Notes: a model not told the origin generated them from the sequence alone. A stretch of 64,000 nucleotides of DNA from Candidatus Undinarchaeota archaeon (GCA_964567575.1 CAZMMZ010000002.1:26004-90003), one strand, 5' to 3'. Positions 466 to 62,126 are shown, numbered from the stretch's first letter. Numbers and translations: made by a program.

Positions 466-1719
466 TTACGTTCCAGCACTGTAATCAGTAGCGTACTTCT
501 TCTGCTCTTCACTCAAAACATCAAGTCCCAATCCCATTGTGTTAAGTTTCAAATCAGCAATTTCCTGATCCTGCTCTTTTGCAATATCATAAACTCTGTT
601 CTCCAGGTCCTTGCCTTTTTCTGCAATGTGGATCATTGTTTTGAATTGGTTAGCAAAGCTCATATCCATAACTTCACTAGGATGGCCTTCAGCTGCTGCC
701 AGATTAACTAATCTTCCTTTAGCAAGCACATAAATTCGTCTTCCATCCGGCATCTTGTACTCTTCATTGTTTGGACGAATCTCCCGTTTGCTTTCAGAAA
801 GTTCTTCCAATTCCGGAATCTTGATTTCGCAGTCGTAGTGACCAGTGTTGCAAACAATTGCTCCGTCTCGCATTGTTTCAAAATGTCTTTTAACAATAAT
901 ATCTTTCATACCAGTTGCAGTAATGAAAATATCTCCAATTTTTGCAGCTTCATCCATTTTCATAACTCTGAAACCTTCAAGAGTTGCTTTCAAAGCCTGT
1001 ATTGGATCAACTTCAGTAACAATAACATTTGCACCAAGTCCTTTTGCGCGCATTGCACATCCTTTTCCGCAGTGACCGTAACCAGCAACTACAAAATTCT
1101 TTCCAGCAATTAGTACAGAAGTTGCTCGAATAATACCGTCAATAGAACTCTGACCAGTTCCGTAAACATTATCAAAATCCCATTTTGTTTCAGCATCATT
1201 TACAGCAATAACTGGGTAGAGCATTTTTCCGTCATCAGCCATTGCTCTCAATCTGTGAACGCCAGTTGTGGTTTCCTCAGAACCACCGAGAATTTCTTTA
1301 GCTAGTTCTGGGTGTTTGTTATGAACTGTGAAAATAAGATCAGCACCATCATCAAGAGTGATTGTTGGTTTTGCAGCAATGCACTGTTCAATACTCCAAT
1401 AAAATCCTTCAGTGTCTTGGCCGTACCATGCGAAAACATCAACATTTTCCTCTTCAGCAAGAGCTGCAGCAACATCATCCTGAGTGCTTAGTGGATTACA
1501 ACCACTCCACACAATTTTAGCGCCAGCATCACGTAAGGTTTTTACAAGAACAGCAGTCTCTTTAGTAACGTGGAGACAGCCAGCAATTGTTTGACCGGCT
1601 AGCGGTTTGGTCTCAGAATACTTTTTTCTGAGAGCCATCATGACAGGCATTCTTGATTCTGCCCAGTCAATTTTTAATCTTCCTTGTTCTGCAAGTTTTG
1701 GGTCTGCTACTTTTGACAT
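466..1719 (-). CDS. ahcY: Adenosylhomocysteinase (SAH hydrolase)
   Basis: Motifs GCLHVTKET, SGCNPLSTQD, LDDGADL, EETTTGVHRL, DNVYGTGQS, GYGHCGKG, NLAAAEGHPSEVMDMSF. Confidence 0.97.
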   Translation of the reverse strand: MSKVADPKLAEQGRLKIDWAESRMPVMMALRKKYSETKPLAGQTIAGCLHVTKETAVLVKTLRDAGAKIVWSGCNPLSTQDDVAAALAEEENVDVFAWYGQDTEGFYWSIEQCIAAKPTITLDDGADLIFTVHNKHPELAKEILGGSEETTTGVHRLRAMADDGKMLYPVIAVNDAETKWDFDNVYGTGQSSIDGIIRATSVLIAGKNFVVAGYGHCGKGCAMRAKGLGANVIVTEVDPIQALKATLEGFRVMKMDEAAKIGDIFITATGMKDIIVKRHFETMRDGAIVCNTGHYDCEIKIPELEELSESKREIRPNNEEYKMPDGRRIYVLAKGRLVNLAAAEGHPSEVMDMSFANQFKTMIHIAEKGKDLENRVYDIAKEQDQEIADLKLNTMGLGLDVLSEEQKKYATDYSAGT

Positions 1720-1832
1720 TCTAAATCACTCAAAAATAGGAATTCAAAGCTGTATAAGTAGTTTATGATAAAATATATTGTTTAGTAATATATTTAAAAT
1801 ACTGGCTTTACTTAATTCTTAAGGGGATTACA

Positions 1833-2618
1833 ATGGATTGGGGAATGAAAAACCGACTATCAAAAATAATCAAGCCAGATACTGGCAGGACAGTCATGCT
1901 CGCAATTGATCATGGCTATTTTATGGGTCCAACAACTGGTCTTGAAAAACCATGGGAAACTATCAAGGATCTTGCACCATATGCTGATGTTTTGATGATG
2001 ACACGTGGTGTTTTACGAAACTGTGTGCCACAAGATATTGACAAGCCAATTGTGCTTCGAGTTTCTGGTGGAACCAGCATAATCGGTAAGGAACTTCTTC
2101 ACGAAGGCAAGACAGTTGATATTGAAGATGTTATTCGATTGAATTGCGCAGGCATGGCTTATTCTATAATGGTTGGCAGTGATTTTGAGCGAGATACAAT
2201 TCTTGATCTTGCTAATTACGCAGACCTTGCAGAGCGATACAACATACCGCTTTTAGCAGTAACAGCTGTTGGAAAAGGACTTGAACGCGATGCACGATAT
2301 CTTGGCCTTGCTAGCAGAATTGCAGCAGAACACGGAGCTCATATTGTTAAGACTTATTATTGTGAGGACTTTGAAAAAGTTGTGAATGGATGTCCAGTAC
2401 CAATTGTTATTGCTGGCGGAAAGAAAATCCCAGAAAAGGATGCACTTACAATGGCTTACAATGCAATTCAAAAAGGTGCAATTGGTGTTGATATGGGAAG
2501 AAACATTTTCCAAAGCACTAATCCTGTTGCAATGATACAAGCAGTACGGGCTGTTGTTCATGACAATGCAACACCTGATGAAGCTTACAAGATTTTTGAA
2601 GAAAAATCTCAAAACTAA
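1833..2618 (+). CDS. lsrF: LsrF-type class I aldolase-fold thiolase (3-hydroxy-5-phosphonooxypentane-2,4-dione thiolase family)
   Basis: N-terminus MDWGMKNRL, LAIDHGYFMGPTTGLE, Schiff-base Lys in IVKTYY, GCPVPIVIAGGKK and GVDMGRNIFQS are typical of LsrF. Confidence 0.85.
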   Translation: MDWGMKNRLSKIIKPDTGRTVMLAIDHGYFMGPTTGLEKPWETIKDLAPYADVLMMTRGVLRNCVPQDIDKPIVLRVSGGTSIIGKELLHEGKTVDIEDVIRLNCAGMAYSIMVGSDFERDTILDLANYADLAERYNIPLLAVTAVGKGLERDARYLGLASRIAAEHGAHIVKTYYCEDFEKVVNGCPVPIVIAGGKKIPEKDALTMAYNAIQKGAIGVDMGRNIFQSTNPVAMIQAVRAVVHDNATPDEAYKIFEEKSQN

Positions 2619-2620
2619 AA

Positions 2621-3613
2621 ATGCGTGTAGCAATATATTACAACAATTCTGATGTTCGCATAGAAGAACGTGATATTCCTGAGATTGGTCCAGGCGAAAT
2701 TCTTGTAAAAGCAAAAGCATGTGGCATATGCGGTTCTGATGTAATGGAATGGTATCGCATAAAAAAAGCTCCACTTATTCTTGGTCATGAAATGACTGGT
2801 GTTGTAGAAAAAGTTGGAGAAGGTGTTACAAATTTCAAAGAAGGCGATAGAGTTTTTGTTTCACATCATGTTCCTTGTATGGATTGCAAATATTGCAAAG
2901 ATGAAAATGAAACAGTTTGTGATTCTCTTAGAACAACAAATTTTGCACCCGGTGGGTTTTCAGAATATGTTAAAGTGCCTGAAATAAATGTTAAACACGG
3001 AACATTTTTACTTCCTACTGAAATCTCTTTTGAAGAAGGAACACTTATTGAACCGCTTGCTTGTGTTCTTCGCGGGCAGAGGAAAGCCAATCTAAAAAGT
3101 GGAAATAGTGTTCTTGTAATTGGAAGTGGCGTTGCAGGAATGTTGCATGTCCAAATGGCAAAAGCAAATGGTGCGAGGAAAATAGTTGCAACAGATCGTA
3201 ATGATTACAAACTTGGACTTGTTCAAAAATTCGGAGCAGATGAAGCAAAAAATGCTAGTGAAGAATTAACAGAAAAATTTGATAGAGTTATAATTTGCGC
3301 TGCAGCGCTTCCTGCAATTGAACAAGGTTTCAAATCTGTTGACAAAGGTGGAAACGTACTTCTTTTCGCTCCAACAAAACCCGAAGTTAATGTTTCATTA
3401 CCTGTGTGGGATTTGTGGAAAGATTGTGTAACTGTTACAACTTCTTATGCTGGAGCTCCACGAGATATCAAAGAAGCAATTGAATTAATACGAACAAAGA
3501 AAGTGAATGCATCGGATATGATAACTCACAAGCTTCCGCTTGAAAAAGCGCAAGAAGGATTTAATCTTGCTGCTGGCTCTGGTGAGTCAGTTAAAGTTGT
3601 TTTAGAAATCTAA
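2621..3613 (+). CDS. Zn-dependent medium-chain dehydrogenase (sorbitol/threonine dehydrogenase-like)
   Basis: CGICGSD, GHE, structural Zn CxxCxxCx7C, Rossmann GSGVAG. Starts 2 nt after the lsrF stop. Confidence 0.9.
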   Translation: MRVAIYYNNSDVRIEERDIPEIGPGEILVKAKACGICGSDVMEWYRIKKAPLILGHEMTGVVEKVGEGVTNFKEGDRVFVSHHVPCMDCKYCKDENETVCDSLRTTNFAPGGFSEYVKVPEINVKHGTFLLPTEISFEEGTLIEPLACVLRGQRKANLKSGNSVLVIGSGVAGMLHVQMAKANGARKIVATDRNDYKLGLVQKFGADEAKNASEELTEKFDRVIICAAALPAIEQGFKSVDKGGNVLLFAPTKPEVNVSLPVWDLWKDCVTVTTSYAGAPRDIKEAIELIRTKKVNASDMITHKLPLEKAQEGFNLAAGSGESVKVVLEI

Positions 3614-3659
3614 GTTCTTAGGGAAAAAGCATTAATACCAAAGATAAGATAATTATTGT

Positions 3660-4031
3660 ATGGGTATATACAGAAAATTCAAAACATTTTTTTCAGCTAC
3701 AGATAGACACATTAAAGATGAATTGAATAAGCTTCTTAGTCGTGGTGGAAATATTTTAAGTGCGAATTTTAAATTAATTGATACTCATGGAGATGAACAA
3801 GAATTTTCTTGTAAAGATAATTTTGGGCATAAAATGACAATTACTCTTAATGATGGTGGCTGGGTGCAGAGTGTTAGTGGAAAATTATCAGAAGAGTTTG
3901 TAGAAACCATTATGGAAGCAATGCAACCTCCTGACAATAAAAAATCTGCGCGTAAAGCTAAAGCAGCAGCAGAAAAATTATTTGGTACTCCAGTGTCTAT
4001 GAGGCACAGTGGTCGCAACGCATATGCTTAA
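3660..4031 (+). CDS. Hypothetical protein
   Basis: 123-aa ORF filling the gap, BRE/TATA-like AAAAGCATTAATA upstream; no motif recognised. Confidence 0.6.
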   Translation: MGIYRKFKTFFSATDRHIKDELNKLLSRGGNILSANFKLIDTHGDEQEFSCKDNFGHKMTITLNDGGWVQSVSGKLSEEFVETIMEAMQPPDNKKSARKAKAAAEKLFGTPVSMRHSGRNAYA

Positions 4032-4571
4032 TTATTCTTTCACATCTTCATTATCGTAATGTTGCAGTGAAAGCAAATCATATTTTCCTAATTTTTCTCG
4101 TCCTTTCAAAAAGTCTAGTTCAACAACAAAGCACATTCCAGCAACTACCCCGCCAATCCTCTCAATAAGATTCGCAGTTGCTTTGATTGTCCCACCAGTA
4201 GCAAGAAGATCATCAACAAGCAAAACTTTTTGCCCTTGCTTTATTGTATCTTCATGCATCTCTATTTTGTCCGTTCCATATTCTAATTCGTATTCTTCGA
4301 AAACAGTTTTGCTTGGAAGTTTGCCTGGTTTTCTCACAATTGAAAGTGGCTTGCCAAGTGCATATGCAAGTGCAGCTCCAAAAATAAAACCACGAGCCTC
4401 CACACCAACAATAACATCAATTTCTTTATCTTTGTAATGCTCTGCAAAAGTGTCAATACAATACTTGAAAGCTTCTGGGTTTTCTAGGATAGTTGTAATA
4501 TCATAAAACAAAATCCCTTCTTTTGGGAAGTTTGGTATTTTTCTAATATGGTCGTCAATGTTAAATTCCAT
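4032..4571 (-). CDS. apt: Adenine phosphoribosyltransferase
   Basis: IPNFPKEGILFYDIT, VEARGFIFG, RKPGKLP, YELEYG, PRPP motif LLVDDLLATGGT. Start placed at MEFNIDD. Confidence 0.95.
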   Translation of the reverse strand: MEFNIDDHIRKIPNFPKEGILFYDITTILENPEAFKYCIDTFAEHYKDKEIDVIVGVEARGFIFGAALAYALGKPLSIVRKPGKLPSKTVFEEYELEYGTDKIEMHEDTIKQGQKVLLVDDLLATGGTIKATANLIERIGGVVAGMCFVVELDFLKGREKLGKYDLLSLQHYDNEDVKE

Positions 4572-4621
4572 AAAATGTTTAAAGAGCATGAACTATTTAA
4601 TCTTAACGTGAGGGATTAAAA

Positions 4622-5419
4622 ATGGCAAGTGCAGAAATTGGAATTATTGGTGGAACTGGTGTTTATGATCAGTCTCTTCTAGAAAATGTTGAGCAAGTCA
4701 ACATTGAAACTCCGTATGGGAAGCCATCGGATGTAGCAACAATTGGAGAATTTAAAGGACAAAAAATTGCATTTATTCCACGTCACGGTCCAAAGCATAC
4801 AATCCCTCCTCACATGATAAATTATCGAGCTAATATTCACGCATTCAAAGAGCTTGGTGTCAAGTGGATTCTTGCGCCGCAGGCTGTTGGTTCTCTACAA
4901 GAAAACTATCGACCAGGTGAAATTGTTTTTGCAGATCAATTTATTGACAGGACTTGGGGACGTCCAACAACTTTTTATGACGGTCCTGAAGTTTGTCATA
5001 TTTCTGTTGCTGAGCCATTTTGTTCTGACTTGAGAAAACTTCTTGCAGAAAAAACTAGACAACTTGGTTATGGTATGCATGATTCCGGGACATATGTTTG
5101 CATTCAAGGTCCTCGGTTTTCAACTAAAGCAGAATCCAAAGCATTCCAGCAATGGAATGGTCATATTATTGGTATGACTGCAGTTCCTGAATGCGTTCTT
5201 GCACGAGAAGCTGAGATATGTTATGCATCAATCGGAATGGTTACAGATTATGATGTTTGGAAAGAACATGTTGTAACAATTGAAGCAATTGTCAAAGTAA
5301 TGAAAGAGAATAATGATAAAGTCAAAAATTTAATTGCTGAGATTACGCCAGAGGTTCCAAAACTTCTTGGGGATCGAAAGTGTGAGTGTGCAACTGCATT
5401 AAAAACTGGTTTAATGTAA
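4622..5419 (+). CDS. mtnP: 5'-methylthioadenosine/5'-deoxyadenosine phosphorylase (MTAP family)
   Basis: GIIGGTG, TPYGKPS, PRHG, NYRANI, AVGSL, DQFIDRT, IQGPRFSTKAES, GMT, VTDYD. Confidence 0.93.
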   Translation: MASAEIGIIGGTGVYDQSLLENVEQVNIETPYGKPSDVATIGEFKGQKIAFIPRHGPKHTIPPHMINYRANIHAFKELGVKWILAPQAVGSLQENYRPGEIVFADQFIDRTWGRPTTFYDGPEVCHISVAEPFCSDLRKLLAEKTRQLGYGMHDSGTYVCIQGPRFSTKAESKAFQQWNGHIIGMTAVPECVLAREAEICYASIGMVTDYDVWKEHVVTIEAIVKVMKENNDKVKNLIAEITPEVPKLLGDRKCECATALKTGLM

Positions 5420-5433
5420 TTATTTTTTAAAAG

Positions 5434-5494
5434 TGTGGGTACAGCAGGGAGCTATTGCCCCCTACTGCAAGACGGTAACCGATAAGACGGTTAA
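5434..5494. other. GC-rich structured intergenic element between convergent mtnP and Lrp-domain genes
   Basis: Minus strand folds as AACCG-n6-CGGUU plus GCAGUAGGGGG/CUCCCUGCUGU (11 pairs incl. GU), followed by a U run. Direct repeat AAGACGGT occurs twice. Confidence 0.4.
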
Positions 5495-5500
5495 TATGAA

Positions 5501-5737
5501 TCAAACTTGTGCTGAAATCAGCAAAGTTTGTGTTTTTGTGAAATCAGGTAATTGTCGAATTTGTTCAAGGACTTCATTGCTCAAAGCAGTTTCTGTTTCT
5601 GCATGGACTTTAGCAATAATGTCATACTTTCCAAAAACAACATGAGCCTCTTCTACGCCTGTAATTGCTTTTAGTTTTTGGATCAAACCCTGTTCACTTT
5701 CAGGATTCACCTGACCGAGCAAATATGCACTGATCAT
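5501..5737 (-). CDS. Stand-alone Lrp/AsnC ligand-binding domain protein (no HTH)
   Basis: MISAYLLGQV...GVEEAHVVFGKYDIIAKVHAE...IRQLPDFTKTQTLLI, 78 aa; start reassigned to ATG at 5737. Confidence 0.85.
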   Translation of the reverse strand: MISAYLLGQVNPESEQGLIQKLKAITGVEEAHVVFGKYDIIAKVHAETETALSNEVLEQIRQLPDFTKTQTLLISAQV

Positions 5738-5772
5738 TTTGGTAATAAAACAATAGTCTTGAGAGTATATAA

Positions 5773-6150
5773 ATATACGGTTCATTTGTAGAAGACGGTC
5801 AGAAAGGAACAACAAAAGAATGGACTGACGTAAATGCTGTATTTGTTTGTGCAGAAGAACATGATAAAAAAATCGAAAGAATAGCCGAGAAAACAACTAC
5901 AATTATCAAAAACCATAGCAAGAAAGCAAGATATGACAAAATAGTTATAATTCCTTTTGTTCATTTATCACAAAATGTTGCATCTTCAAAAATTGCATAT
6001 AGTATTCTAAAAGAAATTGAACGAAGACTGCAAACAGAGGGTTTGGATTTTGAAAGATTTCGATTTGGGTGGCACAGGGTCTTAAGATTAAAAATCACTG
6101 GAAAAAACCCATTTCGTTATAAAGAAATAATCGAAATTGATGAAAAATAA
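5773..6150 (+). pseudogene. Free-standing archaeal ThrRS editing-domain-like frame lacking an in-frame ATG/GTG/TTG start
   Basis: Manual translation: ...NAVFVCAEEHD...KIVIIPFVHLSQNVASSKIAYSILKEI...RFGWHRVLRLKITGKNP. Resembles the xPFAHLS and PFGWYK motifs. Frame opens after TAA at 5770-5772. Confidence 0.7.
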
Positions 6151-6204
6151 AAAATTATTACGGTTCCGAAAAGCATTAAAACCAAAAGATCTCCACTAAC
6201 TATA

Positions 6205-6840
6205 ATGAAAACAGAAATTTCGCCGTCAATATTATCAGCTGATTTTAGCAAGCTTGGTGAAGAATTGAAAGCAATAGAAGCTAATGTCGATTCTTGGCAT
6301 TATGATGTAATGGATGGTCATTTTGTTCCAAATATAAGTATAGGGATTCCAGTTTTGAAATCAATACGTAAAATTACAAAGAAACCGATTGTTGCACATT
6401 TAATGATAGAACATCCTGAAGATTATATAGAAAAATTTGCAGAAGCTGGAGCAGATGTTATTGAATTTCATATTGAAACAGCACCAGAACCTGACAAATT
6501 AATTCAGCAAATTCATGACCTTGGGAAAAAAGCAGGAATTGCATTAAACCCAGATACATCCATTGATATGATCTCTTCTTATTTAGACAAGGTTGATATT
6601 GTTTTAATAATGTCGGTGCATCCTGGTTTTGGTGGACAGGAATTCATTGATGTAACTGAAAAAGTAAAAGAATTACGAGCTAAATATAAAGGTATTATTG
6701 AAATTGATGGTGGGATAAATAATGAAACAGCAAAGATAGTAAAAGATGCTGGGGCAAACAGCTTAGTTTCAGGATCTTATATTTTCCACTCAGAAAATCC
6801 TCTGAAAACAGTAGAGGAGCTACGAAAGCTCCTCAAATAA
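6205..6840 (+). CDS. rpe: Ribulose-phosphate 3-epimerase
   Basis: ISPSILSADF, HYDVMDGHFVPNIS, AHLMI, MSVHPGFGGQ, EIDGGIN, VSGSYIF. Confidence 0.96.
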   Translation: MKTEISPSILSADFSKLGEELKAIEANVDSWHYDVMDGHFVPNISIGIPVLKSIRKITKKPIVAHLMIEHPEDYIEKFAEAGADVIEFHIETAPEPDKLIQQIHDLGKKAGIALNPDTSIDMISSYLDKVDIVLIMSVHPGFGGQEFIDVTEKVKELRAKYKGIIEIDGGINNETAKIVKDAGANSLVSGSYIFHSENPLKTVEELRKLLK

Positions 6841-6842
6841 AA

Positions 6843-7715
6843 TTATCTAAAAATTTTATCAAGTTTTATATCAAAGAAACAAATTTTCCCAGCGTTTGGA
6901 TAATTATAATCAACAATAATATTTTCCTCATCTGCGTTTGTAACTACCCCGCCAATAATATTTCCATTCTCATTTTTTCTTATAGTTGCTCCAAGTTCTG
7001 GTTGATGTTTAATAATAATTCTAGATTCTGTGATGTTAAGAACTTTAATTGGCCACCAAACAAGCAACGGATTATAATAAAAGGAATCCAAAACAGGCAG
7101 TTGCTCTAACCGTGCTTCTCCAAAATCTCGATTAACATCTGTCACTTTGAAGAACCACATCTTATTTTTTATTGTGATTGTATTTCCTATTTGTATATTA
7201 TCATCTGTTAAAGATTCTAATTCTTCTAAGTTCATGTCAATATATTTCTTAATATCATAAACAGCCGGCATTACTTCAAGTTTTTCAGTTAAATGTTCAC
7301 CAAAACAATATCGTGATTCAACTTTTTCTCCTTTAAGTTCTGATCCTTCTTTCATACCATAAACATTACTTTCAAGACCTTTCATAACTTGATTTTCTCC
7401 CAAAACAAATTCAATTGTATCTGTACCAAAATTTTCCCCATCTTCAAATGAACCACTATATGTAACTCTAACTTTATCTCCTATTTCCGCTACTGGAGAA
7501 CGTAGTAATGCAAATGCAAAAACAGCTCCTAAAAGAACAATAAAAATTACTGTGATATAAAGATAAGGAAATTTTTTCTTTTTCTCTTGAATTTTTTTCT
7601 TTAAATTAGAACCTGCTATTTTTTCAATAACTTGGCTTATATCCTTCTCAATTTTAATTGCAAGATCTTTGTTTTTTGTAGAGGATTTTTTCTCCGAAGA
7701 TTTCTTCTTTGCCAT
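6843..7715 (-). CDS. Membrane-anchored FKBP-type peptidyl-prolyl isomerase
   Basis: N-terminal TM; GDKVRVTYSGSFEDGENF, FVLGENQVMKGLE, VDYNYPNAGKICFFDIKL with a large insert. Confidence 0.75.
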   Translation of the reverse strand: MAKKKSSEKKSSTKNKDLAIKIEKDISQVIEKIAGSNLKKKIQEKKKKFPYLYITVIFIVLLGAVFAFALLRSPVAEIGDKVRVTYSGSFEDGENFGTDTIEFVLGENQVMKGLESNVYGMKEGSELKGEKVESRYCFGEHLTEKLEVMPAVYDIKKYIDMNLEELESLTDDNIQIGNTITIKNKMWFFKVTDVNRDFGEARLEQLPVLDSFYYNPLLVWWPIKVLNITESRIIIKHQPELGATIRKNENGNIIGGVVTNADEENIIVDYNYPNAGKICFFDIKLDKIFR

Positions 7716-7765: not shown

Positions 7766-9136
7766 TTACATGCCTGGAACTCGACCTTTGAGCATTTTCA
7801 TCATTTTTCCCATTGATCGTTTATTTCCGCCAACTTGCTTCATCATTTTTTTGCTGAGTTTATATTGTTTCAAAAGCATTCTAACTTCTTCAACTGATGC
7901 TCCGGCACCGGCTGCAATTCTTTTGACACGAGAACCGCTAATAACATCTGGATTTTCCATTTCATCTTTTGTCATGGATTCCATAATCACAGTGAAGCGC
8001 TTAATCTTTTCTTCAGACATTTGCATCTGATCTTTTGGAATTGCTCCTCCGAGAGGAAGCATGTCAAAAATTTTGCTGAGAGATCCCATTTTTTTCATAC
8101 TCTGCATTTGCTTATAGAGATCTTTTAATGTGAATTTTCCTTTTGCAAACTCCTTTGCTTGTTGTTCCATTCCTTCTTGATCTTCATCTTCATAAATCTC
8201 TTTGATTTTTTTAGCAAGGGATTCAAGATCCCCCATTCCAAGAAGTTTTTCAATAAATTTTGTTGGATTGAATTCTTCAAACTCGCTGATGCTTTCTCCA
8301 GTACCAACAAATTTAATTGGAACGCCAAGAGTTGAACAAGCAGATAATGCTCCACCACCTTTTGCACTTGAATCAAGTTTTGTGAGAATAACACCTGTTA
8401 CACCAACAGTTTCATTAAAAGCGCGAGCTTGCTGTGCAGCTTTTTGACCAACATCAGCGGGCATTATCAAAAGTTTTTCATCTGGTTTAAAATAATCATT
8501 AATTTTCTTTAATTCTTCTGTTAATTCTTTGTCAATAACGCTTCTTCCTTCTTCATCTTGTGTTAGAGCATCACGACCAGCCGAATCAACAAGAACAACA
8601 TCAGCGTCTTTCGTTTTGTCAATATTATCTTTTATAATTTGAACCGGATCTTTTCCACCACCAAAAACCGGGATTTGATTTTCTTCACCAAGTTGCTTTA
8701 ACTGCTCATAAGCAGCAGGTCTCCAAGTATCTGTGGAAATCATTACAACTTTCAAACCTTTTTTCTTCAAATATTTACCAAGCTTTGCAGTTGTTGTAGT
8801 TTTACCAGAACCAAAAAGACCAACAAGCATAATTTTTCCTTTGTCCTTTAATTCGAGTTTTCCTGCTTCGCCAGCAAGCGATGTCATAAGTTCTTCATAT
8901 ACAATATTTACAATATGTTCACGTTTTGAAAGTCCAGTTTTTGGTTTTTCTTCCGAAGATCTTTTTTTAATATTCTCCGAAAGTTGGAAAACAAGCTTAA
9001 CATTTACATCAGCAGCTAAAAGTGCGCGTTGAATTTCTTTTACTGTAGTTTCAAGAGTTTCTTTGTCAATATACCCGGCTCTCGCTATTTTTCGCAAACT
9101 TTCCCGCAATGCACTACCTAGCTTATCAAGTACCAT
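7766..9136 (-). CDS. srp54: Signal recognition particle 54 kDa protein
   Basis: MVLDKLG start, GLFGSGKTTT, DTWRPAAYEQL, DSAGR, TKLDSSAKGGGALS, Met-rich M domain with SRVKRIAAGAG. Confidence 0.97.
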   Translation of the reverse strand: MVLDKLGSALRESLRKIARAGYIDKETLETTVKEIQRALLAADVNVKLVFQLSENIKKRSSEEKPKTGLSKREHIVNIVYEELMTSLAGEAGKLELKDKGKIMLVGLFGSGKTTTTAKLGKYLKKKGLKVVMISTDTWRPAAYEQLKQLGEENQIPVFGGGKDPVQIIKDNIDKTKDADVVLVDSAGRDALTQDEEGRSVIDKELTEELKKINDYFKPDEKLLIMPADVGQKAAQQARAFNETVGVTGVILTKLDSSAKGGGALSACSTLGVPIKFVGTGESISEFEEFNPTKFIEKLLGMGDLESLAKKIKEIYEDEDQEGMEQQAKEFAKGKFTLKDLYKQMQSMKKMGSLSKIFDMLPLGGAIPKDQMQMSEEKIKRFTVIMESMTKDEMENPDVISGSRVKRIAAGAGASVEEVRMLLKQYKLSKKMMKQVGGNKRSMGKMMKMLKGRVPGM

Positions 9137-9237
9137 GGTGTATCCTCTTAATATTTCTATTAATATTTGTTGTGGTTGCTGATTTTGTAAGTGAAAATGT
9201 TTATAAGTACTTGCAACACTGAAAAGCTGAGGGGATA

Positions 9238-9387
9238 ATGTTGGATGAGGAGAGAGAGTTAGGTCCAATTACAGGATTAAGAGCAGGCCTTGCAGGGGTT
9301 ATGGTTCTTTTTTTAATTTTACTTATGATATACTATACATTTTGGCCAATTGTTAAGATAGCTATCGGTTTTCTTCCAACATTATAA
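9238..9387 (+). CDS. Small single-TM protein (49 aa)
   Basis: MLDEERELGPITGLRAGLAGVMVLFLILLMIYYTFWPIVKIAIGFLPTL; GAGGGG SD and TTATAA upstream; fills the gap. Confidence 0.6.
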   Translation: MLDEERELGPITGLRAGLAGVMVLFLILLMIYYTFWPIVKIAIGFLPTL

Positions 9388-9434
9388 TTTTAAAGTAACG
9401 AAAAGTATATAACGCATTTTTTGACAAAAACACT

Positions 9435-59366: not shown

Positions 59367-59885
59367 ATGATATATGAAGTTCGTTTTCATGGCCGTGGTG
59401 GACAAGGCGCAGTGACTGCTGCTAATTTACTTGCTGTAGCTGCTGGTTTTGAAGGAAAATATTCTAGGGCATTTCCATTCTTCGGAGTGGAGCGCCGAGG
59501 CGCGCCGGTTCAAGCGTTCTGTAGAATTTCTGACAAGCCATTTAGATCTTATCAAAATGTTTACACTCCTAATACCGTTGTTGTTTTAGATTCATCTTTA
59601 ATCAAAGATGTTGATGTTGCTTCTGGTTTGGAGAAGGACGGGCATGTTGTTGTGAATTGTCATGAGTGTCCTAAATTGAAAAATGGAAATACTCATTATG
59701 TTGATGCAACAAAAATAGCTCTCAATCATATCAAGAAGCCGATTGTAAATACTGCAATGCTCGGGTCGTTTGCAAAAGTTACTGATGTTGTTAAATTAGA
59801 TTCATTAAAGAAAGCAGTTCTTGAAAAATTCGGAGAATCAAATGTTAAGGCACTTGAAGAATGTTATAATGAGGTGAAATCATGA
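59367..59885 (+). CDS. porG: Pyruvate/2-oxoacid:ferredoxin oxidoreductase gamma subunit
   Basis: RFHGRGGQGAVT, FFGVERRGAPV, NTAMLG. Confidence 0.93.
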   Translation: MIYEVRFHGRGGQGAVTAANLLAVAAGFEGKYSRAFPFFGVERRGAPVQAFCRISDKPFRSYQNVYTPNTVVVLDSSLIKDVDVASGLEKDGHVVVNCHECPKLKNGNTHYVDATKIALNHIKKPIVNTAMLGSFAKVTDVVKLDSLKKAVLEKFGESNVKALEECYNEVKS

Positions 59886-60136
59886 ATCCACCGAATTCAA
59901 AACCTGGAACAACTGTAGCGAACAAAACCGGTAGCTGGCGCACTTACAAACCAACTGTTGATCTAGCAAAATGTACAAAGTGTAATATCTGCGCAGGCTT
60001 TTGTCCAGAGGGTTGTATTAATATTGACAAAAACACTGGAGCAATTATTGATTTTGATTATTGCAAAGGATGTGGAATCTGCGCAAAGGAATGTCCAGTA
60101 AAAGCAATTATAATGTCGCTGGAGGTAAAGAAATGA
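59882..60136 (+). CDS. porD: POR delta subunit (2x[4Fe-4S])
   Basis: TGSWRTYKP, CTKCNICAGFCP, CKGCGICAKECP. Confidence 0.93.
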   Translation: MNPPNSKPGTTVANKTGSWRTYKPTVDLAKCTKCNICAGFCPEGCINIDKNTGAIIDFDYCKGCGICAKECPVKAIIMSLEVKK

Positions 60137-61266
60137 AAAAAACATTAGAAGGTTCAATAGCAGTTGCAGAAGCAATTAAGAATTGTGATCCTGATGTTGC
60201 TGCTTGTTATCCAATTACTCCAAGCACTCACATTGGCGAGCACTTGTCAGAATTTTTCGCTAATGGCGAATTGAAATCTTATGTTAATACAGAAGCTGAA
60301 ATTTCTTCTATTGCCGCATTAATCGGTGCATCAGCTGCTGGTGGCAGAGCAGTTTCAGTAACTGCTTCTCAAGGATTGGCTTACATGCACGAGTCACTTT
60401 TCTGCGCAGCTGGTATGCGCCTTCCAATGCTTATTGTTGTTGGAAACCGTTCTCTTTCAGCACCGCTCAGTATTTGGAATGATTGGCAGGACAGTATTGC
60501 AGAGCGCGATTCTGGTTGTCTGCAATTTTATGCAGAGAATAATCAGGAAGCAGTTGATCTTGCAATTCAGGGTTTCAAAATTTCAGAGGCAGTTAATTTG
60601 CCTGCACTTATGGGAATGGATGGTTTTTATTTGACTCATTCTGTTGAGCCACTTGATATTCCTGAAAAATCTGATGTTCAGAAATTCCTTCCGGCTCGCA
60701 AATCAGTTGTAAAACTTGATTCAGCAAATCCAATTACAATGGGTGCTTATGCATTCCCAAAATATTATCAGGGTTTCCGAGAGGATTTGCACAAGGATTT
60801 GACAGCTGCTAAAACCACTATCAAGCAAGTTCATGATGAATTTGCAAAACAGTTTGGTAGGAAATATGGTAATGGATTAATTGAGGAATACAAAACAAAA
60901 GATGCTGATTATATTTTAATTTCAATGGGAAGTGCTGCAGGAAATGCAAAGGATGCAGCAGATGAATTGCGAGCGCAAGGCGAGAAAGTTGGTGTGCTTC
61001 GAATTCGCTGTTACAGGCCATTCCCATCTGAAGATATTGCAAAAGCATTAGATGGCAAAAAGGGTGTTGGTGTTTTTGAAAAGGCATACAGCTTGGGGGC
61101 AATCCCACCTGTTTATGGAGATGTTTCTGAAGCAATTACAAATTGCAAAACCAGGCCCCAACTTTCAAGTTTTGTTGGCGGACTTGGTGGAAAGGATGTT
61201 ACTGTTGATTCTCTTAAAATTTTATTTGGAAAATTAAAGAAGGGGGTGAGTAAAGAATGGGTATAG
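60133..61266 (+). CDS. porA: POR alpha subunit
   Basis: YPITPST, TASQGL, NRSLSAPLSIWND, IRCYRPFP. Confidence 0.93.
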   Translation: MKKTLEGSIAVAEAIKNCDPDVAACYPITPSTHIGEHLSEFFANGELKSYVNTEAEISSIAALIGASAAGGRAVSVTASQGLAYMHESLFCAAGMRLPMLIVVGNRSLSAPLSIWNDWQDSIAERDSGCLQFYAENNQEAVDLAIQGFKISEAVNLPALMGMDGFYLTHSVEPLDIPEKSDVQKFLPARKSVVKLDSANPITMGAYAFPKYYQGFREDLHKDLTAAKTTIKQVHDEFAKQFGRKYGNGLIEEYKTKDADYILISMGSAAGNAKDAADELRAQGEKVGVLRIRCYRPFPSEDIAKALDGKKGVGVFEKAYSLGAIPPVYGDVSEAITNCKTRPQLSSFVGGLGGKDVTVDSLKILFGKLKKGVSKEWV

Positions 61267-62126
61267 ATCCAAATCACTTACTCACTGCAGGACACACAGC
61301 ATGCGCTGGATGTCCAATGCCTGTGATAATTCGGCATGTTCTTGATGTTCTTGGAAAGGATACCATTGTTGTAAATGCAACAAGCTGTTCTGAAATTATT
61401 TCATCTCAATATCCTACAAGTGCTTTCAAAACTCCGTACATTCATTCTTTATTTGAAAATACTCCTGCTGTTGCAACAGGAGTTGTTCGATCCTTGCGCG
61501 CGCAAGGAAATGATCACACTCAGGTTGTAGTAATTGCAGGAGACGGAGCAACTTACGATATTGGATTCGGAGCAATGTCTGGAGCAATGGAACGGAACGA
61601 AGACATTCTTTACATTTGCTATGATAATGAAGCGTACATGAACACTGGAGTCCAGCGTTCAAGTGCAACTCCACCACTTGCAAAAACAACAACTTCACCA
61701 GTTGGTTCAAAAATACATGGCAAGATGATGCCAAAGAAACCAATTGTAGAAATCTGCGCAGCGCATGGAATTCCTTATTCTGCATCTGCAAGTATTGCAT
61801 ACCTTCCGGATTTCAAAGCAAAACTTGAGAAAGCAAAAGCAATGAAAGGATTCAGATTCATTGATGTGATTTCACCGTGCGTTCCTGGATGGGGATATGA
61901 TCCTGCAATTTCAATAGAACTCTCAAGACTTGCTGTTGAAACTGGAATGTGGGAATTATTTGAAATTGAGAATGGAGTAAGAAAAGACACTTTCAAGCCA
62001 GGGCAATTAAAACCAGTTGAATTATATTTGAAACCGCAGAAGCGGTTTAAGCATTTGACTGATGCTGAATTAAAAGGGATTCAGAAAAAGATTTTGGAAA
62101 GAACGAAGATTCCGTTGTTGAAATAA
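61257..62126 (+). CDS. porB: POR beta subunit
   Basis: GHTACAGC, ATSC, FEN, GDGATYDIG, YDNEAYMNTGVQRS, SPCVPGW. Confidence 0.93.
   Translation: MGIDPNHLLTAGHTACAGCPMPVIIRHVLDVLGKDTIVVNATSCSEIISSQYPTSAFKTPYIHSLFENTPAVATGVVRSLRAQGNDHTQVVVIAGDGATYDIGFGAMSGAMERNEDILYICYDNEAYMNTGVQRSSATPPLAKTTTSPVGSKIHGKMMPKKPIVEICAAHGIPYSASASIAYLPDFKAKLEKAKAMKGFRFIDVISPCVPGWGYDPAISIELSRLAVETGMWELFEIENGVRKDTFKPGQLKPVELYLKPQKRFKHLTDAELKGIQKKILERTKIPLLK

Follow-up and report, generated by a model that had tools for sequence, protein, structure and literature searches.

A gene for a homologue of LsrF and a gene for a zinc-dependent dehydrogenase lie side by side near one end of a 64,000-nucleotide stretch of DNA, hereafter the window, from a Candidatus Undinarchaeota archaeon (GCA_964567575.1 CAZMMZ010000002.1:26004-90003). 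The two genes probably constitute a mobile cassette that takes over from MtnP and MtnA in processing the sugar phosphate derived from S-adenosylmethionine (SAM) by-products, replacing the usual class II aldolase by an oxidation followed by a thiolysis. In a preliminary description of the window, ahcY was reported to be divergent from the lsrF-dehydrogenase pair, with apt, mtnP and rpe following, and all of these genes were found where they had been placed. The list also includes an orphan reading frame and an Lrp/AsnC-family regulator gene that the description had passed over:

466-1719, minus strand: ahcY, S-adenosylhomocysteine hydrolase (TIGR00936, 632.3 bits, cut-off 497.6; NF004005, 642.7 bits)
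1720-1832: divergent spacer between ahcY and lsrF, 113 bp, AT-rich (direct reading of the sequence)
1833-2618, plus strand: LsrF-type class I (Schiff-base) aldolase-fold enzyme, 261 amino acids (NF006081, 413.9 bits, cut-off 297)
2621-3613, plus strand: Zn-dependent medium-chain dehydrogenase (MDR), 330 amino acids (PF08240 and PF00107)
3660-4031, plus strand: orphan open reading frame (ORF), 123 amino acids (no Pfam or NCBIfam family)
1771-4029: inserted segment of 2.26 kb comprising lsrF, the dehydrogenase gene and the orphan ORF (blastn against the sister genome G013)
4032-4589, minus strand: apt, adenine phosphoribosyltransferase (TIGR01090, 235.9 bits, cut-off 185.9)
4622-5419, plus strand: mtnP, 5'-methylthioadenosine/5'-deoxyadenosine phosphorylase (NF006334, 387.9 bits, cut-off 382; TIGR01694, 333.7 bits, cut-off 274.9)
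5501-5896, minus strand: Lrp/AsnC-family regulator (PF01037, 42.9 bits)
6205-6840, plus strand: rpe, canonical ribulose-phosphate 3-epimerase (TIGR01163, 263.6 bits, cut-off 212.6)

Curated NCBIfam cut-offs were exceeded by ahcY, apt, mtnP, rpe and the LsrF-type gene, while the dehydrogenase matched general families only. The lsrF stop codon is separated from the dehydrogenase start by two nucleotides (TAA-aa-ATG), and the two genes would be translationally coupled. A GGGG(A) ribosome-binding-like motif occurs in the 113-bp spacer immediately 5' of the lsrF ATG. The apt and mtnP genes are divergent with 32 bp between them. The isomerase MtnA had been described as lying outside the window, which is correct, and a search of the host genome located a bona fide MtnA on contig C9 (TIGR00512, 402 bits, cut-off 279).

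In the proposed route, MtnP would split the 5'-deoxyadenosine released by radical-SAM enzymes into adenine, to be salvaged by Apt, and 5-deoxyribose-1-phosphate (5-deoxyribose-1-P), which the MtnA encoded on contig C9 would isomerize to 5-deoxyribulose-1-P. These first two steps follow the established functions of the families. The Zn-dehydrogenase would then oxidize the secondary alcohol at C4, adjacent to the methyl group, converting CH3-CHOH-CHOH-CO-CH2OP to CH3-CO-CHOH-CO-CH2OP, which is 3-hydroxy-2,4-pentanedione 5-phosphate, the substrate of LsrF. By extension from the E. coli enzyme, a Schiff base would form on Lys173 of the LsrF-type protein and the acetyl group would be transferred to coenzyme A (CoA), giving dihydroxyacetone phosphate (DHAP) and acetyl-CoA. 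The net products would be DHAP, acetyl-CoA and NADH, with no free acetaldehyde, and the methylthioribulose-1-P derived from 5'-methylthioadenosine (MTA) may go the same way. Judged from the two proteins, this oxidation-thiolysis chemistry is plausible. There are precedents for an unfavorable dehydrogenase reaction that is pulled by thiolytic cleavage, namely threonine dehydrogenase/Kbl and beta-oxidation. The Tdh-Kbl pair offers an analogy in that a zinc-dependent MDR oxidizes a CH3-CHOH group to a methyl ketone and a second enzyme cleaves the product with CoA to acetyl-CoA and a C2/C3 fragment. However, the cleaving enzyme of that pair is a pyridoxal phosphate enzyme, whereas here it is a Schiff-base TIM barrel and the substrate is a sugar phosphate.

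The LsrF thiolase reaction, in which 3-hydroxy-2,4-pentanedione 5-phosphate and CoA give DHAP and acetyl-CoA, was reportedly defined by Marques et al. in 2014. The window protein scored well above the cut-off of the NCBI LsrF equivalog model (NF006081), and the E. coli LsrF structures 3GKF/4P2V matched its residues 1-257 with an E value of 5e-89. The LsrF proteins of E. coli and Salmonella (PDB 3GKF, 3GLC, 4P2V) have the same fold and belong to the same family, with about 54% identity (54% to E. coli LsrF in a global alignment). All 10 ligand or catalytic residues are identical, D26, H27, K173, Y175, G195, G196, D220, M221, G222 and R223 of the window protein corresponding to E. coli D57, H58, K203, Y205, G226, G227, D251, M252, G253 and R254, and the same 10 positions were invariant in an alignment of 83 homologues. 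A difference from the enterobacterial proteins is the absence of their 31-residue N-terminal domain-swap arm. The first residue of the window protein aligns with E. coli residue 32, the spacer upstream is too short to encode an N-terminal extension, and most homologues have 0-3 extra residues. In the LsrF structure the phosphate ligands are His58, Gly226, Gly227, Gly253 and Arg254, and the Schiff-base lysine is Lys203 (PMC2728841). The catalytic Tyr/Glu that serves as the proton shuttle of true aldolases is not conserved in LsrF, which has Asp251 instead, a position occupied by Ala in close aldolase relatives and by Ala or Ser in ordinary aldolases (PMC2728841). From its sequence, the LsrF-type protein of the window is predicted to be a CoA-dependent thiolase acting on 3-hydroxy-2,4-pentanedione 5-phosphate.

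The LsrF-type gene is present in a single copy in the genome. The relationship of its product to the wider DeoC/LacD-DhnA superfamily was also evaluated. MJ0400 (ADH synthase) and the archaeal class IA fructose-1,6-bisphosphate (FBP) aldolases are decameric TIM-barrel relatives within this superfamily and have about 30% identity to the window protein, which scored far below the cut-offs of both types (191.8 vs. 299 and 120.8 vs. 430 bits, respectively). The latter score, obtained with the archaeal class I FBP aldolase model, ruled out a housekeeping FBP aldolase. Both types have Ala where LsrF has Asp251 (PMC2728841) and are split from the LsrF-type clade by a long, fully supported branch. Among the 401 genomes described below the NF006081 scores were bimodal, with LsrF-type proteins at 355 bits or more and other DhnA-type proteins at 241 bits or less, and in a phylogenetic tree the LsrF-type proteins and the ordinary DhnA-type aldolases of the same genomes were separated by a long, fully supported branch. 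MJ0400 and the class IA FBP aldolases of the DhnA family have been linked to 5'-deoxyadenosine recycling in Methanocaldococcus. E. coli LsrF was nested within the cassette-type clade on a long branch, a placement that is provisional because the tree was a quick maximum-likelihood tree whose careful search was unfinished and long branches are unreliable. In the control E. coli genome NF006081 gave a match that did not reach the cut-off. Since lsrF is present in E. coli K-12, the control may be a strain without the lsr operon.

The best matches of the dehydrogenase were threonine dehydrogenase (TDH), sorbitol dehydrogenase and ketose reductase, all under the equivalog cut-offs. The score against the L-threonine 3-dehydrogenase model TIGR00692 was 172.7 bits (cut-off 458.35), and by this measure the protein is a relative of TDH, not a member of that family. 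It has the catalytic zinc ligands C37, H56 and E57 together with E144 in an EPL motif, a structural zinc site formed by C86, C89, C92 and C100, and a Rossmann GxGxxG at 168-173 that is followed by D192. An Asp at the latter position is typical of NAD+ rather than NADP+ binding, and the EPL motif is a hallmark of the polyol dehydrogenases, a subfamily that includes the sorbitol, threonine and butanediol enzymes and oxidizes secondary alcohols. The basic residues R13, R46, H82, H83, R151, H303 and K325 are invariant in the family and could hold a phosphate. The cassette enzyme is the only MDR of its kind in the genome. It is predicted to use NAD+ in oxidizing the hydroxyl group at C4 of 5-deoxyribulose-1-P.

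The neighborhood of LsrF was compared in 80 loci of related genomes whose LsrF-type proteins share 64-75% identity with that of the window. The taxa represented were Thermoplasmatota, Altiarchaeota, Aenigmatarchaeota, Deltaproteobacteria, Acidobacteriota, Gemmatimonadota, Anaerolineae, Omnitrophota, WOR-3 and others. An orthologue of the dehydrogenase (48-64% identity) was found within 7 kb of LsrF in 57 of the 80 loci, mostly directly downstream. The adjacency of the two genes is far beyond chance, and neither LsrK nor LsrG was found within 10 kb of LsrF in any of the loci. MtnA adjoins the pair in 10 loci and ahcY is near LsrF in 2; at one locus MtnA, LsrF, the dehydrogenase, a class II aldolase, MtnP and Apt are all encoded together. 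Judged by gene order, LsrF and the dehydrogenase are a conserved two-gene cassette.

Other recurrent neighbors of LsrF in these loci, such as LemA, M48 and M20 peptidases, UbiA and NAD kinase, were rejected as pathway genes since they reflect lineage-specific synteny. The genes that lie between LsrF and the dehydrogenase in some relatives (GDPD, OsmC, MBL, SAM methyltransferase) were set aside as inconsistent. One family within the order of the window has a gene for a SAM-dependent methyltransferase (Methyltransf_11) that overlaps the 5' end of the dehydrogenase gene (L087:7673-8302, plus strand; L092:1065-1682, minus strand; and L093:4281-4952, plus strand; genomes G010, G009 and G011, respectively). 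Stand-alone class II aldolase genes flank the pair in loci L012 and L075.

The dependence of the cassette on MtnA was assessed in a sample of 401 genomes, each at least 85% complete, from the phylum to which a pair-bearing Thermoplasmatales genome belongs, which is not the phylum of the window. LsrF was above the cut-off in 105 of these genomes and MtnA was present in 247. MtnA was found in 104 of the 105 LsrF-positive genomes vs. 143 of the 296 that have no LsrF; one of the 105 (G391) is unpublished and the counts shift by one if it is omitted. A strong class II aldolase, defined by E <= 1e-30, was detected in 16 of the 104 genomes with both MtnA and LsrF, and 80 of them had no class II aldolase at all. 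The corresponding number was 106 of the 143 genomes with MtnA and without LsrF, where the aldolase gene often directly adjoins mtnA, and 2 of the 154 genomes that have no MtnA. As partners of MtnA, LsrF and the class II aldolase nearly exclude each other, and the replacement by the cassette of the aldolase step after MtnA is well supported. Furthermore, an orthologue of the dehydrogenase (E <= 1e-85) was identified in 89 of the 401 genomes, 85 of which are LsrF-positive, and in none of the 106 class II aldolase-type genomes. The class II aldolase route would make the same aldehydes, yet no such dehydrogenase was found in its genomes, indicating that this enzyme is tied to LsrF and not to aldehyde disposal.

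A similar pattern was observed elsewhere. Five distant genomes with the pair all encode MtnA. In the window's own phylum, represented by 17 species-level genomes of 0.6-1.1 Mb, the 10 genomes that have LsrF (above the cut-off) are precisely those that have the dehydrogenase orthologue. A class II aldolase was not found in 7 LsrF-positive genomes of this phylum, one of them 98% complete, and a standard short class II aldolase is present in 2 genomes without LsrF. One family of the phylum has neither MtnA nor LsrF nor the dehydrogenase.

Twelve of the 20 LsrF-positive genomes that seemed to have no dehydrogenase were inspected individually. Two have it beside LsrF, once below the threshold and once split, and in one LsrF lies at the end of a contig. 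The remaining nine carry a second LsrF subclade with 51-58% identity to the window protein. At three of these second-subclade loci LsrF adjoins a 655-residue fusion of a class II aldolase domain and a short-chain dehydrogenase (SDR) domain (PF00596 and PF00106), that is, another dehydrogenase, and there is no Zn-dehydrogenase. The fusion genes are all on the minus strand:

L101:6197-8164, minus strand: class II aldolase-SDR fusion, genome G253
L102:3740-5713, minus strand: class II aldolase-SDR fusion, genome G343
L103:3543-5516, minus strand: class II aldolase-SDR fusion, genome G418

In another of the nine, genome G079, a fusion of an ADP-forming acetyl-CoA synthetase with a GNAT domain (L097:2931-5630, minus strand) is encoded 167 bp downstream of the LsrF-type gene on the same strand, and this single locus hints that the product of LsrF is an acyl-CoA.

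The site of the cassette in the window was compared with two sister genomes, G012 and G013, in both of which ahcY, apt and mtnP are contiguous. By blastn, window positions 467-1770 match positions 6352-7654 of locus L106 in G013 with 87% nucleotide identity, and window positions 4030-5326 match L106 positions 8136-9424. The intervening window segment, 1771-4029, stands where G013 has 481 unrelated bases, and the cassette is thus an indel within the ahcY-apt-mtnP cluster. Flanking repeats, as a mobile-element signature, were not found around the inserted segment. In G012 the pair is located elsewhere, in the company of genes for GDPD, a protein with a class II aldolase domain and a rhomboid protein. 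So the cassette would appear to move as a unit and here to have landed in a pre-existing cluster for SAM by-products, a location in keeping with the proposed route. The AhcY protein of G012 (L107:6360-7592) is 48% identical to that of the window, and the G013 protein is 96% identical. The uneven identities of AhcY, and of LsrF and the dehydrogenase (see below), suggest gene replacement or very uneven rates.

The possibility was considered that the LsrF-type protein is a non-orthologous aldolase in an otherwise ordinary DHAP shunt. This is the main rival explanation, in which 5-deoxyribulose-1-P (or methylthioribulose-1-P) would be cleaved to DHAP and acetaldehyde (or methylthioacetaldehyde) and the dehydrogenase would reduce the aldehyde to ethanol (or methylthioethanol). 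The protein has the fold of class I aldolases (PF01791), and Diaz et al. placed LsrF among these enzymes on the basis of its structure (PMC2728841). Aldol cleavage to DHAP and acetaldehyde is moreover the established fate of 5-deoxyribulose-1-P (PMC6079011), an aldolase and an alcohol dehydrogenase are a common pairing, and this reading would account equally well for the dependence on MtnA and for the class II aldolase having been displaced. However, LsrF has Asp251 and is devoid of the aldolase Tyr/Glu, aldolase activity was undetectable in the hands of the same authors (PMC2728841), and the window protein has the same residues. The dehydrogenase belongs to the polyol/threonine dehydrogenase subfamily that acts on secondary alcohols, not to a primary alcohol or aldehyde type, and aldehyde disposal predicts its presence in the class II aldolase genomes, in none of which it was seen. 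With the acetyl-CoA synthetase downstream of LsrF in G079 also pointing away from it, aldol cleavage is considered unlikely.

It is also conceivable that the substrate is a different one and the link to MtnA indirect. The cassette might act on ribulose-1-P from adenosine or other nucleosides, giving DHAP and glycolyl-CoA, or on a diketo-pentose phosphate that arises spontaneously, as a form of metabolite repair. AhcY produces adenosine, and the position of its gene beside the cassette, here and at 2 of the 80 loci, would fit such a role, as would the presence in the genome of a nucleoside pathway of the RuBisCO/ribose-1,5-bisphosphate isomerase type, the small number of loci in which MtnA adjoins the pair and the fact that the substrate of the dehydrogenase is a prediction. 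Against this, the near-obligate presence of a bona fide MtnA and the mutual exclusion with the mtnA-linked class II aldolase point to the product of MtnA as the substrate, the methyl ketone needed by LsrF arises from a 5-deoxy sugar only, and the nearest characterized relatives of the dehydrogenase, threonine and butanediol dehydrogenases, oxidize CH3-CHOH groups. A different substrate is, on balance, quite improbable.

A third explanation, genuine breakdown of the quorum signal autoinducer-2 (AI-2) as in the enterobacterial lsr operon, is suggested by the match to the LsrF equivalog model and by the treatment of archaeal lsrF as an AI-2 processing gene in an earlier report (PMC11442133). In Enterobacteria lsrF is found in the context of LsrK, LsrG, LsrACDB and LsrR, whereas here its partner is a Zn-dehydrogenase and, at the genome level, MtnA. 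The AI-2 route makes the LsrF substrate by phosphorylation and isomerization, and without LsrK and LsrG it could not be made from AI-2; in the route proposed here it would be made by oxidation of a deoxy-pentulose phosphate. Neither an FGGY kinase, the type to which LsrK belongs, nor LuxS was found in the host genome, and tblastn searches of this genome with E. coli LsrK, LsrG, LsrR and LsrB gave no match. Likewise, LsrK, LsrG and LsrB were not found within 10 kb of LsrF at any of the 80 loci; an LsrR-like regulator is encoded 3 kb from LsrF at a single Anaerolineae locus (L062), with no other Lsr homologue nearby. Moreover, S-adenosylhomocysteine is recycled in this organism via AhcY and not via Pfs/LuxS, so that 4,5-dihydroxy-2,3-pentanedione (DPD), the AI-2 precursor, is not made. 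AI-2 breakdown at this locus is scarcely credible.

The preliminary description had placed a dehydrogenase and LsrF downstream of MtnP and MtnA in lieu of a class II aldolase, and this part is upheld by the presence of MtnA, its occurrence in 104 of 105 LsrF-positive genomes, the near-exclusivity of LsrF and the aldolase and the way in which the dehydrogenase follows LsrF. It had also raised the possibility that Rpe sets the stereochemistry at C3, a part that was not supported. The genome has a single canonical rpe copy that is separated from the cluster by the Lrp/AsnC regulator gene between mtnP and rpe. Neither rpe nor the regulator is beside mtnP in G012 and G013, and rpe is near LsrF in 2 of the 80 loci. 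The C3 of the diketone lies between two carbonyls and, as a matter of chemical inference, should epimerize readily, so that no epimerase would be needed. The rpe gene is probably a housekeeping gene outside the pathway. The lsr operon of Salmonella carries lsrE, an Rpe homologue of unknown role (PMC2728841), and one Anaerolineaceae locus has an Rpe-like gene (L048:9301-9951) immediately upstream of LsrF. There may be a sporadic link between LsrF and an epimerase despite the housekeeping appearance of the window rpe.

Several observations weigh against the proposal of a cassette that oxidizes and thiolyzes the MtnA product. No characterized precedent for the C4 oxidation was found. MtnA is beside LsrF in no more than 10 of the 80 loci, and because related genomes are not independent and their kinship was unavailable for the 401-genome sample, the signal in those counts is overstated. 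The adjacency to ahcY, apt and mtnP is absent at the site in the two sister genomes and reflects a recent insertion, which makes it weak evidence on its own. Between the window genome (G000) and G012, which is of the same genus, the dehydrogenases are 59% identical and the LsrF proteins 88%. An ADP-forming acetyl-CoA synthetase was not found in the host genome, which is 82% complete, so that its absence is not implied. Lastly, a search of the host genome for class II aldolases returned one atypical protein of 348 residues (PF00596, 90 bits; contig C11, L003:1429-2475, plus strand) that was below the cut-offs of all NCBIfam aldolase models. In the host genome and its genus such proteins have 348-369 residues and a C-terminal zinc-ribbon, and their gene invariably neighbors one for a rhomboid protein. 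The G012 copy (L086:3370-4479, minus strand) is 0.75 kb away from lsrF and the dehydrogenase gene, with one GDPD gene in between. This protein might be the real aldolase of the host.

One of the closest known systems to the proposed route is the DHAP shunt, or 5-deoxyribose salvage (MtnP or MtnK/DrdK, MtnA/DrdI and Ald2/DrdA; PMC6079011). The entry genes for MtnP, MtnA and Apt are common to both, as are the input (5'-deoxyadenosine and MTA), the product DHAP and the dependence on MtnA. The two differ in that the shunt employs a metal-dependent class II aldolase and releases free acetaldehyde, whereas the cassette encodes a dehydrogenase and an LsrF-type enzyme and is predicted to yield acetyl-CoA and NADH. 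A full-text literature search returned no paper linking LsrF to MtnA, 5-deoxyribulose or SAM-waste salvage, and LsrF does not figure in the papers on the DHAP shunt.

All cells that possess radical-SAM enzymes have to get rid of 5'-deoxyadenosine, and the established disposal routes known to us all end in a class II aldolase that releases acetaldehyde. About 40% of the MtnA-positive genomes in the 401-genome sample (104 of 247) carry LsrF. A broader proposal, which we hold with as much doubt as belief, is that 3-hydroxy-2,4-pentanedione 5-phosphate is a regular intermediate of an old, widespread and aldehyde-free salvage of 5'-deoxyadenosine (MtnP-MtnA-dehydrogenase-LsrF) in many anaerobic archaea and bacteria, from which the enterobacterial AI-2 pathway borrowed LsrF. 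If true, the route would conserve the two-carbon fragment as acetyl-CoA and fill a large gap in the metabolic reconstructions of Thermoplasmatota, DPANN archaea, Omnitrophota, Deltaproteobacteria and others. It would also explain where the last step of AI-2 catabolism came from in evolution, and relabel hundreds of "LsrF / autoinducer-2" annotations that are now read as quorum sensing in archaea (e.g., PMC11442133).

The gene content of the host assembly (745 kb, 18 contigs) is that of an archaeon, with ribosomal protein S19e, NreA, an SRP54 that is recognized by the eukaryote-type SRP54 model as well as by the bacterial ffh model, and the RuBisCO homologue described below. Ten radical-SAM proteins and the triosephosphate isomerase TIM were identified. 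The gamma, alpha and beta subunits of a CoA-dependent 2-oxoacid:ferredoxin oxidoreductase are encoded at window positions 59367-62126 on the plus strand, indicating that the cell uses CoA. Spermidine synthase was not found in this 82%-complete genome, from which its absence is not implied; the result makes 5'-deoxyadenosine the likelier main input. The genome also encodes a homologue of the RuBisCO large subunit (contig C9:19343-20143, L085; PF00016, 288 bits) and a ribose-1,5-bisphosphate isomerase-like protein (contig C16, L001:1480-2376, minus strand) with a score of 290.8 bits, just below the cut-off of 314. The RuBisCO homologue and the isomerase-like paralogue fit what would be the archaeal AMP/nucleoside pathway, separate from MtnA.

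The orphan ORF of 123 residues downstream of the dehydrogenase gene was rejected as a conserved member of the cassette, as it belongs to no family and no homologue was found in the 80 loci, in a further 8 related loci or in 5 related genomes. It is probably outside the pathway. An unrelated small ORF occupies the equivalent place in G013. An Rfam search of the entire window returned two tRNAs and nothing else. The SRP54 ORF (window 7766-9268, minus strand) is listed with a TTG start about 45 codons ahead of the first conserved domain, and the true start is probably further downstream.

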